64,000 bases of DNA from a virus. Lineage: Duplodnaviria > Heunggongvirae > Uroviricota > Caudoviricetes. The translations under genes were made by a program, and so were the position numbers. The stretch lies in IMG/VR virus record IMGVR_UViG_3300028549_001428; one strand, 5' to 3'. The first letter of the stretch is position 1; each line of letters starts with the position of its first letter. The notes under the pieces were generated by a model. That model made no database searches and was not told the origin of the DNA. It saw only the letters and a program-made list of their open reading frames with translations. Of the stretch, positions 19,327 to 35,204 are shown in pieces.

Positions 19327-19910
19327 TTATCTGCTCAATTTATTCGAATCATAGAACGTTGGTTCTTTCTTAGATACCCACTTAATAAAATTCTGAATAT
19401 CATTATTTTCTTTTAATTTTTCAATTGTATTATATGTATAAAATATTTCACTTTCTGTAAACAGGGAGTGAATTTTGCTATGGCATATTCTATGCAAATC
19501 AATAGTTTCGTTTGAGGCACCAGCCTTTAGCTTAGTTTTCAAGTGATGAGCACTACGTTCTGATTTTGGTAGAAAACGTCCACATAGAGGACAATTATCA
19601 TCCTCTCGTGGACGCATATATTCAGGCAGACGTTCTAAGTACAATTTGTCAATAACAGATTGCATTCGATCTCTACCTACTGGATTGCTACTAACGATTT
19701 TGATTTCTTGTTTAGGAAGATGTTCTGGGTGTTCTTCTAACCAACACATCACATCATATCCTGTCCATTCCTTACCATCTTCATCGTAACAGGCTAAAGC
19801 AACAGAACATCCCATTCCGATGTTTCTAATGCTTCTACACCGCTAAAATAGTCTCTAGCTACCTTTGTAGCTGGAAGGTTTCGGATATCGTCAATGGGTA
19901 ATATTTTCAT
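19327..19910 (-). pseudogene. Receiver-like (cyclic-phosphate-processing type) domain plus HNH domain, frameshifted near 19796
   Basis: ATG 19910 gives MKILPIDDIR...WDVLLL then TAG. Another frame continues LACYDEDGKEWTGYDVMCWLEE...SSNPVG and CPLCGR...HHL...CHSKIH. The expected DHD before L is missing. Confidence 0.65.
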
Positions 19911-20305
19911 AGTAATTTCAAATGTCTAGTAATTGCATCAATATTTTCTGGATAATCTGGACCAATTGCAATACAGGTCTTGGTCACGACACCATTGAAT
20001 TCGGTTAGTCCAGCATCTTCAATCATTGCACATGGAATTCCGTATTCAATCGCCTTATTATACATATCAATCAATTCCTGTTCTGAATCAACCGATAAAC
20101 ATATTTTAGTAAATAATCCTTCAATCCACTCTCGCATAGGATCGGTCATATTTATAACACGTTGATCCATTCCATTTTGATCAACAATTACCTTGGATCT
20201 ATCTAAAAGTACTTTCATTGACGCATGAGCACCTTGAGCTACCATCTTACCTTTGCGCATATTTAGATCTTTACGCATTACTATTACTTGCTTTGGGTAG
20301 GACAT
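19907..20305 (-). CDS. pth2: Peptidyl-tRNA hydrolase Pth2
   Basis: KQVIVMRKDLNMRKGKMVAQGAHAS, KICL, DAGLTE, TCIAIGP and ITRHLKLL. Confidence 0.92.
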   Translation of the reverse strand: MSYPKQVIVMRKDLNMRKGKMVAQGAHASMKVLLDRSKVIVDQNGMDQRVINMTDPMREWIEGLFTKICLSVDSEQELIDMYNKAIEYGIPCAMIEDAGLTEFNGVVTKTCIAIGPDYPENIDAITRHLKLL

Positions 20306-23330: not shown

Positions 23331-23564
23331 TTAATTTTCTTCTCTAGGCTTGATATTGTTATGAGCAAGCCACCCAGCCGTTGTTCCAGTCCATAAACCA
23401 GTAGATTTGCATATAAATCCAAACTCTGTTATTTGCACAACAGGATCTAGAAATACATTTGCATTTACATTAGATACCAACCAACCAACTTCAGGTGTAA
23501 ACCGTTCACCTGCTATGGTGGCAACTGGCTTATCTATTTTCGCATGAGTCTTGTTTTTCTTCAT
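23331..23564 (-). CDS. Hypothetical protein
   Basis: AGGAG SD; TATATT upstream. Confidence 0.55.
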   Translation of the reverse strand: MKKNKTHAKIDKPVATIAGERFTPEVGWLVSNVNANVFLDPVVQITEFGFICKSTGLWTGTTAGWLAHNNIKPREEN

Positions 23565-24900: not shown

Positions 24901-27063
24901 TTACAGGAATTCACCCATGATCTTTTCGATATCGAATGGGGTAATGTTACCATCCATTGATACGACAAGATCAGCATCTTCCTTTTTATCCACGATTGTT
25001 CCACGAGCACTTGCATGCAAGGTCATCAAATCATGAATAGTAGCCTTCTTGATAGAAGAAATAGACTTACCCATTAAAGTAATGCTACCCTTCATGTTCT
25101 CGACGTTTGCGCCACGACGATATGAATAACCACCTTCATTGCGTGGATCGTTATTAAGAGCCAAGTCACCCCAGATCATTTCACGATTAACCACATCAAT
25201 TACCAATGGAATGCTGTAACGGCTTTCCGCAGTTAAATCAATCTTATTCTGCACTGTTTTTGCATCAAAGATTTCACCTGACTGTGGTTTGTCACGCATC
25301 ATCCAACCAGCGAAACACTCTGGCATATCAGAGAACTTCTGAGAAGTGAATGAAATTACATTCATTACAATATACTGACCACCACTTCTCAACACACTAT
25401 CTAGATCAATATCAATAAACTCACATGCACCATGTGGTGCAGAAGTGATATCACCGCTATGACATGCAATAATACTATCATTAGAACGAAGGTTAGTATA
25501 TGAAATATGCGTCATATGCTTCCAGTTAGTATCGTACATCATAGCAGACAAATCAACGTCTACACGTTCACCAGCAATATCATGCCACCACAAGAAGAAA
25601 CGAACTGTATTCTTATCAGCATCCAACTTAACACGAGAACCACGTACAAGAGTACGGAGGGTTCTGCTTGCTGAACGCTGTGAGAATGGAACAATCATTC
25701 CCTTCATGGAGGCATCAATATACACCTTACCCATAGGTTCAAGTGCAGAGAACCGAGTACGCATAGCATTTTCACATGCGCTAATTACCTGCAAGCAGAG
25801 TGAATCTGAAATTACTGGTAGATCATTTTCAAGTGCCATAGCCTTCGCAACATTTCCTTTTGGGAAAATGACACGAAGTTCTGAATTATTTCGGCTATTG
25901 AAATGCGCCATCACCTGCAAGAGTACAGGAGTAGCAATCTTGTCAGCAATCGAAACGAATGCATTTATAATGACATTCTGCTCTGAACGAGTAGAAGCAA
26001 TACGCAATAGATGGTCAAGGCGACGGGCCAATTCACCAGGTCTACGCTTCAACTGATTAATAGCAACCTTGATATCCTTGGATACCAAAGCACTTTCAAC
26101 AGTTCCACCAAAGGTAGAAATCTTATCACCATCACGCAATGCATTGAATGCACTTACGGCAGTGCTATACTTCTTATAACGATCTTCTGATGGATGTAGA
26201 CGCTCGGCTAAACGAATCCAACGACCCTTATTGCGCAACATATCTTCCTTAACATTACCCATAGCATCAATCATTTCCATGAGAGACTTACGTTCACTGC
26301 GAGTAAAGTTACGGAACTTGGTGTTTTTTGCAAGGCTTACATCACCATCAGACATAGCAGTAGCTAGACGAAGAACGTCAGTTACACTATTAAACAATCC
26401 AGTGACTTGTTCAGTCAGCTTGGTATACTTCAACAATTCACCTGCGATGAATGTAAGATTTTCCTTATGGGTCACTGCTGTTGGGAGCATAGTAGAAACT
26501 TTGTCACCAAATAGCTTGATAACAGTAGTGATATCATCCTTATCGGACTGTGAAATCGAAGTCTTTGCACCCATTAGATTGCTAATGAGTTTCTTAAAAT
26601 CTTGCTCTGTAGCAAGATTAATAACCTTTAGATCAATATTGTCCATCAAAGGAAAACGTACCTTCACATCATACTTAGGCATGATGCGAAGATTAACAGC
26701 ATCACCGAGGTAATGCATGATTGCATTGATATACAATTCAGAATCGGTTGCTTCCATCACCTGCGATGTGAAATTAGGATACATTGGTGTCCACTGCTTG
26801 TTAGAGCCAGTTAGTGACTTCAATTCACCAACCAATGAACTGTATACTTGGTATACAGAATCGACACTCAAAGTACGAAGTTGTTCAATCATAGCCACGG
26901 ACATAATGTATCCATAGCGTTCCAAATTCTTTAGCATAGTAGCAATATAAGTTGAAGGCAACTTATAACCAACTTGCATACATGCCTGTTCATCAGGCAC
27001 AATAAACTTCATCGAACGACGAAGAAAAATAGAATTGATACTGTTAATTTCTCTCTGATTCAT
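24901..27063 (-). CDS. 720-aa protein with large helical N-terminal region and C-terminal TerD-like domain
   Basis: PMYPNF, TDVLRLA, RPGELARRLDHLLR; TerD motifs DVDLSA, HSGDITSAP and EFIDIDL. Confidence 0.75.
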   Translation of the reverse strand: MNQREINSINSIFLRRSMKFIVPDEQACMQVGYKLPSTYIATMLKNLERYGYIMSVAMIEQLRTLSVDSVYQVYSSLVGELKSLTGSNKQWTPMYPNFTSQVMEATDSELYINAIMHYLGDAVNLRIMPKYDVKVRFPLMDNIDLKVINLATEQDFKKLISNLMGAKTSISQSDKDDITTVIKLFGDKVSTMLPTAVTHKENLTFIAGELLKYTKLTEQVTGLFNSVTDVLRLATAMSDGDVSLAKNTKFRNFTRSERKSLMEMIDAMGNVKEDMLRNKGRWIRLAERLHPSEDRYKKYSTAVSAFNALRDGDKISTFGGTVESALVSKDIKVAINQLKRRPGELARRLDHLLRIASTRSEQNVIINAFVSIADKIATPVLLQVMAHFNSRNNSELRVIFPKGNVAKAMALENDLPVISDSLCLQVISACENAMRTRFSALEPMGKVYIDASMKGMIVPFSQRSASRTLRTLVRGSRVKLDADKNTVRFFLWWHDIAGERVDVDLSAMMYDTNWKHMTHISYTNLRSNDSIIACHSGDITSAPHGACEFIDIDLDSVLRSGGQYIVMNVISFTSQKFSDMPECFAGWMMRDKPQSGEIFDAKTVQNKIDLTAESRYSIPLVIDVVNREMIWGDLALNNDPRNEGGYSYRRGANVENMKGSITLMGKSISSIKKATIHDLMTLHASARGTIVDKKEDADLVVSMDGNITPFDIEKIMGEFL

Positions 27064-30874: not shown

Positions 30875-31188
30875 AAGAAAAATACTTTCACACACAATGC
30901 AACAATTACAATACTCATACCAATGAGTATTTTTTTGTGTCTCTCTGCTTGATTATATAAAGCAGTTGTATTCAATTGTTGAATTGTCACAATCTGCGCA
31001 TGGCGTTTTAGTAATTTATGTGCAATTTCCAATGACTGTATAATTTTCTTTATATTCTCAGCATTTCGACTTTCAATGAATTCATTACGCAATTCACCAC
31101 CCGATGAAAGTGCATTCATTTCATATTCTATCTTATCTATTTCATTATGTAATTCACTATCATCAAACATTTCGGGATTCATATTCAT
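30871..31188 (-). CDS. Hypothetical protein with C-terminal TM helix
   Basis: ILIGMSIVIVALCVKVFFF tail. Confidence 0.5.
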   Translation of the reverse strand: MNMNPEMFDDSELHNEIDKIEYEMNALSSGGELRNEFIESRNAENIKKIIQSLEIAHKLLKRHAQIVTIQQLNTTALYNQAERHKKILIGMSIVIVALCVKVFFF

Positions 31189-31679
31189 TCCTTATACAAT
31201 GGTTGGAATTGTTGTTTTTCTTTATTTTTAAATACATTCAAGGCATCGAATGCAATTCCATTCATAACTACATATGTTCCATGCTGTAGTGATTGGGAAT
31301 ATGCAATAGCACACCCAACATTAAACATAGCATCTGATTTTGCTACTACATATGGAATTATTGACCCTGTTAAAATAATTGTTTTGTCTTTCAATGTACT
31401 TAATGCTTTAGCAGTATCAACTATTGTATCTGTTCCATGAATAACAATTATACACTCATCTTCAACCGTTTTGCAATATTCTCGCATGCAAATTCTATCA
31501 GATGCATTCAAATCTAAACTGTCTTTTAACGTAATTGTTTGAATTGAATAATCCACCGTCATGCGAGATTGCTCAATAATCTGATGGATATTAGATACAG
31601 TATAAGCTAGATCTCCTTTATATTCGGAGTATACTTTATCTATAGTCCCACCAGTAATTAAAAATTTTATCTTTTTCAT
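31185..31679 (-). CDS. Short L-asparaginase-like protein
   Basis: ITGGTIDK, KDSLD, HGTDT and ILTGS. Confidence 0.85.
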   Translation of the reverse strand: MKKIKFLITGGTIDKVYSEYKGDLAYTVSNIHQIIEQSRMTVDYSIQTITLKDSLDLNASDRICMREYCKTVEDECIIVIHGTDTIVDTAKALSTLKDKTIILTGSIIPYVVAKSDAMFNVGCAIAYSQSLQHGTYVVMNGIAFDALNVFKNKEKQQFQPLYKE

Positions 31680-32353: not shown

Positions 32354-32365
32354 ATTCTCTCCTAG

Positions 32366-32451
32366 TGCGGATAAAGGGGTTCGAACCCTTGACGTGTATT
32401 GCTACAAAAGGATTTAGAGTCCTCCGCTTTCGACCACTCAGCCATATCCGC
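32366..32451 (-). tRNA. Amber suppressor tRNA, anticodon CUA, long variable arm (Tyr/Leu-like body)
   Basis: Acceptor GCGGATA/TATCCGC with A73; D-loop AGTGGTCGAA; anticodon arm GAGGA-CTCTAAA-TCCTT; variable stem TGTA-GCAA-TACA; T arm AAGGG-TTCGAAC-CCCTT. CCA is not encoded. Confidence 0.92.
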
Positions 32452-32480: not shown

Positions 32481-32509
32481 AATATAGTAAATTAATCTCT
32501 TAGTGTCAA
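32481..32509 (-). promoter_or_regulatory. Sigma70-type promoter for the tRNA, TTGACA-N17-TATATT
   Basis: Exact match. Confidence 0.75.
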
Positions 32510-32773: not shown

Positions 32774-32957
32774 TGTTAGCCTCTCTATATTCAAGTTCAT
32801 TAATAAATTCATCTACAAAGGTGTTAATGATATCATTATTTAGCGATGAATATATACTAGGACAGCATCCATGTCTACAGCCATCATCATATTGATAATA
32901 CCATGCCTCTTCGTTTAATTTATTAATTAAAAGTTCCTTCAATAATGCCTTATCCAT
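32766..32957 (-). CDS. Small hypothetical protein
   Basis: AGGAGG SD upstream. Confidence 0.55.
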   Translation of the reverse strand: MDKALLKELLINKLNEEAWYYQYDDGCRHGCCPSIYSSLNNDIINTFVDEFINELEYREANNG

Positions 32958-32969
32958 GACAGACCTCCT

Positions 32970-33389
32970 TTATCTTATTGAGGATGCCAGTGATAAATCC
33001 ATTTTTTCATTGAAATCAATAGAATTCATTATTTCAGCGGAATCAATATACAAGGAAATCATACCCTTTAACTTATCCACATTCAAAGCCTTTTCAGTCT
33101 TTTCAGTCTTTTCAATTTCGGATAATTTGTTTCCCTTCAATAATGAATAGGCTACGTGCATATGTCTAGCATATGATTTAACGAAATACATAGCATATTG
33201 AGGATATGCAACATTTATGTTTAATGTTGTTGATATGGCTTTATATTTAGCCAATACAGCTTCTACTGCTGTTGTCGTGTCAGTTCTCTGTCATTCTTTG
33301 AATGCGTGTTTATACTGACGGGTGAATTCAGAAACCAACTTGATGTCAGCTTTGAATTTAGATAATGCGATTTTTAATTCATTGTTCAT
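32970..33389 (-). CDS. Hypothetical protein (RHMHVAYSLLKG motif) with an in-frame TGA at codon 33; readthrough, pseudogene or error
   Basis: AAGGAG SD and ATG 33389 give MNNELK...HAFKE*QRTDTTTAVEAVLAKYKA..., in frame with the listed 32970..33254 ORF. Confidence 0.65.
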
Positions 33390-33396
33390 AATAATA

Positions 33397-33510
33397 CTCC
33401 TTAAATTTGTGAACTTTGTTTGTTTTGTTTTTATCGTTACAGTACAGCCGAAAACAAACCAAATTAAGGAGGGCGGTTGTTAAATACCTACATCATGGTA
33501 TATCCTTTTA
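33397..33510 (-). promoter_or_regulatory. Leader with amber uORF (ATG ATG TAG) and SD-sequestering hairpin
   Basis: AAAGGA-6nt-ATG ATG TAG GTA TTT AAC AAC CGC CCT CCT TAA. CTCCTTAATTTG (33471-33460) is complementary to CAAATTTAAGGAG (33409-33397). Confidence 0.75.
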
Positions 33511-33535
33511 TTAAAATTATTTTCTTCATATTGGT

Positions 33536-33564
33536 AATATAGATTATTATCGCTTTCTTGTCAA
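33536..33564 (-). promoter_or_regulatory. Sigma70-type promoter TTGACA-N17-TATATT
   Basis: Exact match; drives the amber-uORF leader. Confidence 0.75.
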
Positions 33565-34026: not shown

Positions 34027-34087
34027 TATGCATTTCCTGTGGCAGAACCACCATATTTTATATTTATCATTGCATTAATATAGTAAA

Positions 34088-34525
34088 TTATTTGCGGTTT
34101 GGCTCGACTGCAACATAACTTAATCGATAATCTGGTAAAATTATTCCATCAGCACCTGCAACACCATAGCCAACAGGGAAAAATTCAACCCCTGCAATAC
34201 CAGACGTTTGAATTAGTCCAGCCAACATATTACCATCACGAGTTGTTTTACATTCACAATTTATTATAAGAGATGAATTCACAATAGAAGCACCCATTAC
34301 ATAAGCCATTGCTTTTTTATCCCAAGGTTCTGATAATGGAATGTTTTTCATCTTCCGTTCTACTGGATTCATTTCTTGTATAATAATTCTTGGTTGCAAT
34401 GTAAACCGTTCCATCAGTTTATTCAATACATGCATAGGATAAATGTTTCCATCTATTGTTGGCATACCTGCAACCATTAACACAGCACTAAATTTATATC
34501 CTTCGACCTTAGTTTTTGGTGCCAT
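34088..34525 (-). CDS. Hypothetical protein, weakly prohead-protease-like
   Basis: PTIDGNIYPMHVL resembles the NxNGRxYP motif of T4 gp21-type proteases. Confidence 0.4.
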   Translation of the reverse strand: MAPKTKVEGYKFSAVLMVAGMPTIDGNIYPMHVLNKLMERFTLQPRIIIQEMNPVERKMKNIPLSEPWDKKAMAYVMGASIVNSSLIINCECKTTRDGNMLAGLIQTSGIAGVEFFPVGYGVAGADGIILPDYRLSYVAVEPNRK

Positions 34526-35204
34526 GTTCTACTCCATGCAATGCAAATTTTCTCATACGACTAACACAACGAGCTATGATAAATTTCAATCTACTTGAAT
34601 TAATACCTATTTTTATCGATAGGTCTTTTATGTTATAATTTCTGGATAGTCTTAAAATTTCCAAGTCTTCTTTTGCTTGGTCATTTAATTTACCATTAGC
34701 TTCATACACTTCTATAAGTGCATCTAATTCAATAGTACAATTTTCATCATGTGGCTGTACAAATGCTTCCATATCACCCATGTTAGAACCGTCTTGATGT
34801 TCGTTATAGTCATTAAGATCGCTATAATCTATTTTTACATCTTTCTTTTTCATAACAGGAACATGTATCAAATCATTATTGTAATTATACCAGTTCTGTA
34901 CTAAACCTCTAATGGTTTGCATTGCATAATGATAAAAGGGCATTCCTACTGCTGGATCATATGTTTCAGTTGCTTTACATAAGCCTTCATATGTGAAAGA
35001 CATTATAGAAGCCAACGGCTGATTATAATTGTATTGGTAATATATTAGATAAATCAGACGAGCATTATTTTTTAATAATTTTTGTAGATTTGCATCCTTC
35101 TTATCACTCTTGGATGGGTCTTGAATATCCTTGACTAATATATCATTAATCTCAGCACCATTGGATGGGAAGGGATGTCTTTTTATAAATTCTTCAGGAG
35201 TCAT
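34509..35204 (-). CDS. Phage RNA polymerase sigma factor (sigma70 family)
   Basis: KLLKNNARLI, EGLCKATETYDP..GMPFYHYA..IRG, LIHVP and C-terminal HTH IKDLSIKIGI. Confidence 0.8.
   Translation of the reverse strand: MTPEEFIKRHPFPSNGAEINDILVKDIQDPSKSDKKDANLQKLLKNNARLIYLIYYQYNYNQPLASIMSFTYEGLCKATETYDPAVGMPFYHYAMQTIRGLVQNWYNYNNDLIHVPVMKKKDVKIDYSDLNDYNEHQDGSNMGDMEAFVQPHDENCTIELDALIEVYEANGKLNDQAKEDLEILRLSRNYNIKDLSIKIGINSSRLKFIIARCVSRMRKFALHGVEHGTKN

Follow-up and report, generated by a model that had tools for sequence, protein, structure and literature searches.

What is the role, in a phage, of a reading frame that stops at an amber codon after two methionines, continues in frame to a Pro-Pro-stop, and there lies over the anti-Shine-Dalgarno (anti-SD) of the next gene? 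Such a leader occurs on the minus strand of the window, by which we mean the whole 64,000-nucleotide stretch of phage DNA analysed here, immediately ahead of a gene that we call gene A. The initial annotation read it as a switch sensing the state of the genetic code. From comparison of sequences across many phages, we consider it probable that the conserved amber and Pro-Pro leader acts as a translational ON switch for gene A, driven by readthrough.

The promoter, start region and readthrough peptide are where they had been reported. The sigma-70-type promoter TTGACA-N17-TATATT (33536..33564, minus strand, as for all leader features below) has its -35 hexamer at 33564-33559 and its -10 hexamer at 33541-33536, with 17 nt between; 11 of 12 positions match the consensus, and both hexamers are identical in L001, a syntenic contig. 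Promoter-like sites in the window are at chance level overall (14 seen, 14.1 expected from shuffles). TTGACA/TATATT promoters are repeated in the window (32481-32509, 33536-33564, 34076-34090) and in L001 (5031-5046), and an ATG often lies 6-7 nt past their -10 box, which suggests leaderless mRNAs in the phage. At the leader, an alternative ATG (33527..33529), in frame and 11 codons before ATG ATG, keeps the same position and frame in L001; lying 6 nt past the -10 box, it may serve to start the same uORF on a leaderless mRNA, without an SD. The leader SD, AAAGGA (33503..33508; GGAG at the matching place in L001), is followed by ATG ATG TAG (33496-33488), the in-frame amber (33488..33490) being succeeded by GT. 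Readthrough would yield M-M-amber-V-F-N-N-R-P-P-TAA (uORF 33464..33496), a design that is kept family-wide, and its terminal Arg-Pro-Pro-stop (33464..33475), which carries synonymous changes in relatives, is the predicted ribosome pause site.

A long hairpin is predicted at 33397..33471, formed by an anti-SD arm at 33471-33460 and an SD arm at 33409-33397 that holds the gene A SD, GGAG. One base is bulged between the arms in the MFE structure, and an inner T-rich/A-rich stem extends the pairing. The anti-SD/SD stem proposed for this leader thus stands as a predicted pairing. The 151-nt window leader alone is no more stable than its shuffles (z 0.04). A single leader could not show a hairpin at such a value, so the evidence for it is comparative. 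Transcription attenuation was rejected, as terminator calling gave none in 33389-33564. A second match in the window to the pattern of TAG followed by a Pro-Pro-stop, at 23545, was also set aside: it lacks an SD and lies out of frame inside another gene.

Gene A itself (32950..33389, minus strand) is a pseudogene in the window. An in-frame TGA occupies codon 33 (33293-33291), where nine of nine aligned homologues have Trp. Near 33090 a stretch of 9 nt is duplicated, and the absence of 1 nt near 33001 shifts the frame and removes the C-terminus of the family. Recoding of TGA as Trp does not account for codon 33, since coding density in the window does not rise under that code (0.86 vs 0.89), relatives have TGG there, and the same gene carries a frameshift. 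Read run X1 has the same gene A letters at a depth of about 68 and is not independent, because it is probably the window's own source; the lesions are absent from relatives in runs X2 and X4. Since gene A is broken, the switch in the window is probably vestigial. The leader and the tRNA described below are intact although gene A carries three lesions. No relative of the window's gene A was found in viral_contigs or among cultured phages, and no name for it came from Pfam, PHROGs, PDB-sequence or ESM Atlas searches. An exact search for the hairpin pattern gave no match, and a metagenome scan gave one locus.

Is the leader a property of the gene A family? A profile search gave 106 representatives of this family, whose core is R-H-x-H-I-A-Y-x-L-L-R-G, and the window clade joins the broad family at 99.5%. 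Alignment of 56 representatives led to 57 viral loci, chosen by protein alone with upstream DNA ignored, and these fall into 44 clusters (70% identity). Our fixed leader test called for an SD-led start 40-200 nt upstream, a first stop within 12 codons, and then an in-frame Pro-Pro or Pro-stop. By this test, whose motif rules, like the footprint positions used below, were set only after leaders had been viewed, 49 of the 57 loci have a TAG leader, as do 36 of the 44 clusters; TAA was found once and TGA never. The same test on 160 control genes, other genes from the same loci, gave TAG 1, TAA 3 and TGA 2. A frame-blind test, in which the start was chosen by SD alone, found an SD-led start in 38 of the 44 clusters and none in six. 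TAG was the first stop in 34 of the 38, and CCNCC stood in frame in 29, compared with 1 and 4 in the other two frames. Homologues thus keep the uORF described in the initial annotation, and they use TAG, not TAA or TGA, at its first stop. The refuting outcome that the annotation had named for homologues, loss of the uORF or free use of TAA/TGA, was thus not seen. Some features were scored in a set of 45 leaders, consisting of the 36 clusters and nine added by hand (the window, L001, L015-L019, L024 and L056). Here purine-T comes directly after the amber in 33 of 45, a context seen at 6 of 73 ordinary TAG stops. A purine 3′ of an amber favours suppression.

The eight clusters that failed the strict test differ in kind. 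L024 and L056 have the leader motif with a weak SD; the L042 leader ends K-P-L-stop; L028 has R-S-P-S; and L050 has the amber without Pro-Pro. In L030, as in L037, the upstream gene's own TAG serves as the amber, and in L057 the amber is codon 3 of gene A itself. Together with the ambers inside the PTH2-like ORF described below, we regard these two arrangements as simpler variants that follow one logic. L039 has no leader, no tRNA and no PTH2-like ORF of the kind described below. Several leaders (L020, L022, L024, L031, L032, L037, L042, L048, L067) contain two or three tandem ambers, some of them sharing a G-F-T-amber unit; tandem ambers could sharpen a threshold. In L016, L017, L019 and L068 the read-through leader continues in frame into the downstream gene, making an N-terminally extended product possible there.

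Close relatives show which parts of the window leader change and which do not. The gene A of L001 is 46% identical to that of the window, and its leader, M-M-*-V-Y-R-T-R-P-P-TGA, equals the window leader in length and in its amber. Between the two, the Arg codon has changed synonymously, the stem carries a paired change, and the loop sequence of the hairpin is common to both. Read-run evidence, which consists of contigs only, adds a variant, present in runs X4 and X10, whose inner stem carries T insertions matched by A insertions. In a further X10 contig, which has a depth of only 2 and may hold errors, three leader residues differ while TAG, Arg and Pro are kept via synonymous changes. Runs X7, X15 and X6 gave no cover of the region.

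We computed the cost of opening the ribosome-binding site (RBS) of the downstream gene with a hard ribosome footprint; in these model energies, the median of the 45 leaders is 9.6 kcal/mol free, 10.3 kcal/mol with a ribosome at TAG and 4.0 kcal/mol with a ribosome at Pro-Pro. The predicted cost drops by more than 2 kcal/mol in all 45. For the window the values are 8.7 free, 8.6 at the amber and 4.5 at Pro-Pro, and the predicted switch of L001 is shallow (6.6 to 3.3). When footprints were fixed and nothing was selected, 37 of 44 clusters showed a drop of more than 2, as did 20 of 160 controls. Pairing between anti-SD and SD across homologues, which the initial annotation had proposed as a check, is borne out in a locus-specific form: arms match their own partner (10.6) better than in 300 swapped arm pairs (5.1). 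The models place the SD within a sequestering hairpin whose 5′ arm would lie under the footprint of a stalled ribosome, the arrangement that characterizes attenuators.

The leader is also linked to an amber suppressor tRNA. As had been noted, a tRNA with a CUA anticodon lies downstream on the same strand of the window (32365-32451), and it is syntenic in L001. It has a long variable arm, A73 and no encoded CCA, and by identity rules we take it to be Tyr-derived. In the Rfam search this tRNA was the one significant match. ARAGORN labels it 'Pyl', which follows the anticodon only. True tRNA-Pyl has a short variable loop and pyl genes nearby; we rejected this assignment for an 86-nt element with a long variable arm and a match to the general tRNA family. 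Across the family, the expected co-occurrence is strong: 41 of 44 clusters have a CUA tRNA no further than about 3 kb away, and the next most frequent anticodon is found in 4 of 44. In the L067 record the CUA tRNA is about 4.4 kb away, and for G001 (33% complete) there is no CUA tRNA in the part of its tRNAs covered by a listing of 30 loci for 76 matches over three records. Position 73 of 51 CUA tRNAs is A in 27, U in 14, G in 7 and C in 3, and acceptor-stem identity is not shared. With N73 and acceptor stems so varied, no single charging route is evident. Three loci (L035, L045, L049) have two CUA tRNAs each. Directly before the leader in L044, L045, L049, L051, L053, L054, L056, L073 and L074 are tRNA-like genes with odd anticodon loops, for which ARAGORN returns 'aaa', 'tc' or no call.

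In 41 of 44 clusters gene A overlaps, or is fused with, a PTH2-like ORF, as detected by a profile seeded from 14 ORFs of the same loci. This ORF is divergent, matching Pfam PTH2 at E 5e-4, under the cut-off. Structure modelling of a fusion gives the gene A helical domain followed by an alpha/beta domain (pLDDT 93). Residues Q, H, E, D and T are invariant in the PTH2-like domain, and in a weak alignment no Lys stands at the place of the GK motif. The catalytic residues of PTH2 are Lys, Asp and Thr, and PTRHD1 provides a model for a non-catalytic PTH2 fold. An in-frame TAG lies inside the PTH2-like ORF in L038, L057 and L067. Beside gene A in the window and in L001 the ORF is absent. The window has a canonical PTH2 gene at 19907-20305 (minus strand; Pfam E 2e-32), with the GK motif, 13 kb from the leader. 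Other genes connected with ribosome rescue were seen near the module: tmRNA genes in four loci (L032, L033, L043, L067), and, in L037 / L134 (G015:C1:78363-78548), a short GGQ gene, presumably ArfB-like, that ends in the TAG opening the leader. RF-1 family matches were found in 3 of 36 records, all of them short GGQ proteins, one of which ends in the leader amber; gene A has no match to that family.

The design extends beyond the gene A family. A blind DNA pattern gave 13 loci, one of which holds the module (L006/L015): there the tRNA, leader and hairpin precede a small protein other than gene A. The other loci from this pattern (L007-L009 left out) are antisense to or inside genes. Relatives of that small protein in the cultured jumbo phages fHe-Yen9-04, CBB, BF and XbC2 have M-L-amber...G-P-P leaders, with a CUA tRNA 17-19 kb from the leader. 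There is little support from hhalign (probability 6.5%, E 0.006) for homology between the P0126/cultured-phage protein and gene A, and the leader design alone is shared. L167, a further independent case from a separate genome collection, has the full module with R-A-P-P; the other match, L168, is not a gene.

The sampled genomes are not TAG-recoded. In forty 20-kb stretches from nine genomes of the set and the window, reading TAG as sense gave no gain in coding density beyond the TGA control (window, 0.89 vs 0.90), and the 548 long ORFs end in TAA 344 times, TGA 131 times and TAG 73 times. The sampled genomes use the standard code, TAG is a working stop, and ambers within genes are confined to the module. 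The sensor of the genetic code in the initial annotation is therefore supported in a narrower sense: the switch would sense amber readthrough rather than a genome-wide change of code.

How might such a switch work? The input would be a contest at UAG between RF1 and the phage CUA suppressor tRNA. RF1 would end most ribosomes at UAG, too far upstream to reach the stem, and the SD of gene A would stay hidden. Where the suppressor tRNA wins, the ribosome would reach Pro-Pro and pause. Termination and elongation at Pro-Pro are slow. The paused ribosome would open the hairpin and thereby unmask the gene A SD and, through the overlap between the two genes, the PTH2-like ORF as well. Readthrough, pausing and induction are steps that we infer. 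As to the output, we would put at slightly under an even chance that gene A and the PTH2-like domain have a feedback or rescue role, limiting suppression or clearing its peptidyl-tRNA and stalled-ribosome by-products; tmRNA and ArfB-like neighbours, together with working TAG stops, favour this over a loop directed against RF1. Output roles of other kinds are unlikely.

It is also possible that the output feeds forward. Gene A, with its PTH2-like domain, would then inhibit RF1 or help to charge the CUA tRNA, and readthrough would amplify itself during infection as a positive loop or timer. Ambers within gene A and the PTH2-like ORF fit such a loop, as do the tandem ambers, which would make its threshold sharper, and the acceptor stems of the CUA tRNAs, which are more diverse than a single host synthetase would recognise. 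A timer function has also been proposed for recoding, in the available part of 10.1101/2021.08.26.457843. Against it, the sampled genomes have no recoded regions, and because 73 of 548 long ORFs end in TAG, the phage's own genes would suffer under strong RF1 inhibition; a strict leader pattern run on 35 records recovered known leaders only (four records) and no second regulated gene. We consider a positive loop rather doubtful, if worth keeping in mind. A different account has the amber minigene sense peptidyl-tRNA drop-off, or termination stress in general, with the tRNA a fellow traveller and readthrough incidental. In 30 of 45 leaders the TAG comes as the third codon, which gives them the length of bar minigenes, and the PTH2-like ORF follows in the great majority of clusters; lambda bar minigenes are toxic at low Pth (PMC8012679, available sections). 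Drop-off sensing leaves unexplained, however, the in-frame Pro-Pro past the stop, the predicted opening from the Pro-Pro position only, the exclusive use of TAG and the linkage specifically to CUA, and it seems improbable.

Another question is whether the conserved letters specify a peptide at all, or an RNA site in which the anti-SD is combined with a motif that gene A would bind to repress itself, the peptide being a by-product of CCTCC. The window's CCT CCT doubles as the anti-SD, so that Pro-Pro and anti-SD coincide; L001 shares the loop; and gene A, modelled as a small protein with a helical hairpin domain (pLDDT 93), could bind RNA. Across loci, however, each of the four Pro codons occurs, and 29 of 45 leaders have both Pro-position codons clear of the stem, with the anti-SD beginning just past the stop. 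Pro-Pro is therefore not a by-product of CCTCC. The hairpin sequences are otherwise unrelated between loci, and both TAG and CCNCC stay in register with the SD-led start. We judge an RNA site quite improbable. Chance or assembly artefact, for which one might cite the chance level of promoter-like sites and the stray pattern at 23545, is scarcely credible given the excess of TAG-then-Pro leaders over controls (36 of 44 clusters vs 1 of 160 genes) and their conservation in syntenic as well as unrelated phages. As for the peptide, its ending varies, which counts against the proposed switch where Pro is followed by TAG or a sense codon: after Pro, the next codon is TAA in 25 leaders, TGA in 7, TAG in 5 and sense in 8 (n = 45), and the residue preceding Pro-Pro is K in 19, R in 10 and G in 8. 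Leaders of the gene A family with a sense codon past Pro-Pro have the motif R-x-P-P (L029, L043, L067, L068, L167). R-x-P-P at a uORF end resembles arrest motifs, and RDPP and RSPP are partly permissive, according to the available part of PMC12992588. R-[AG]-P-P near the C-terminus is not found in the window (N-R-P-P) or L001 (T-R-P-P), and RGPP or RAPP occurs in a minority (L032, L037, L043, L067, L167). By eye, none of the leader peptides (6-24 residues) has a localisation signal or membrane segment.

Several known systems resemble the phage leader in part. The secM-secA, mifM-yidC2, ermCL-ermC and cat systems and the RAPP/RGPP arrest peptides ApdA and ApdP likewise have a uORF before a hairpin-masked SD, and in such attenuators a ribosome stalled in the uORF melts the hairpin over the next SD. 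Our leaders similarly consist of a short uORF with its own start upstream of the putatively regulated gene. They differ in that their peptides are very short and carry no localisation signal, an in-frame amber would gate the predicted stall site, and a suppressor tRNA is linked. The main text of PMC12992588, as available, contains the words 'phage' and 'stop codon' zero times. In the prfB frameshift, expression depends on an early in-frame stop that registers release-factor activity (PMC12421855, available part). The phage leader would rely on UAG and RF1 where prfB relies on UGA and RF2, and on a tRNA that reads through where prfB shifts by +1; moreover, its hairpin would act on a separate gene whose product is not a release factor (no Pfam RF-1 match). 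PepNL and TnaC arrest at a stop codon, as would the Pro-Pro-stop leaders. In PepNL, readthrough by host Trp-tRNA at UGA releases the arrest (PMC11890864, available part), whereas in the phage leader the pause would itself be a product of readthrough. Phages with TAG recoding (crAss-like, Lak; code 15) also carry CUA suppressor tRNAs, and readthrough has been proposed for regulation and sensing in them (10.1101/2021.08.26.457843, in the sections available); the phages with the module, in contrast, have a standard code. PTH2 across jumbo phages is described as a likely rescue enzyme in the accessible portion of PMC7824862, and start-x-stop minigenes load Pth in that of PMC8012679. The PTH2-like ORF of the module differs from canonical phage PTH2 in being divergent, lacking the GK motif, and being fused to or overlapped with gene A. 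No description of an amber-gated leader was found in the full-text literature searched, which takes in few subscription journals and excludes supplements. The stall-and-unmask step is already known; that literature has no account of the amber gate, the suppressor tRNA or the gene A/PTH2-like output.

If the switch operates as proposed, amber suppressor tRNAs of standard-code phages gain a concrete, testable job, and a natural readthrough sensor would need only a 30-nt leader and a hairpin. Because the same design is found in four cultured jumbo phages, it is directly testable. The unstudied gene A family and the divergent PTH2-like domain would be likely actors on translation termination, and synthetic biology would have in the leader a ready-made reporter of RF1 activity or of how efficient suppression is. 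A broader proposal, to which we give an even chance, is that the suppressor tRNA serves as a built-in probe of host RF1: leader readthrough would switch on the gene A family and a non-canonical PTH2-like domain acting on termination or on the suppressor tRNA, in a feedback circuit on the meaning of UAG that is a widespread phage module. If true, this would explain amber suppressors in standard-code jumbo phages, and it could be a step from which TAG-recoded phages arise.

Finally, the surroundings of the module deserve mention. A protein recorded on a 365,647-base contig, together with gene content, points to a jumbo phage as the source of the window. Genes at 24901-27063 (a 720-aa protein, which we take to be TerD-like), 31185-31679 (an asparaginase N-domain protein) and 34509-35204 (a sigma-70-like factor) belong to a jumbo-phage early region. 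In one clade, a shared gene with the pattern ..AHAGE.AAY.AY.GH.., ferritin-like by eye, lies beside the CUA tRNA (L066 3718-4191, L071 3746-4216, L073 3735-4130).
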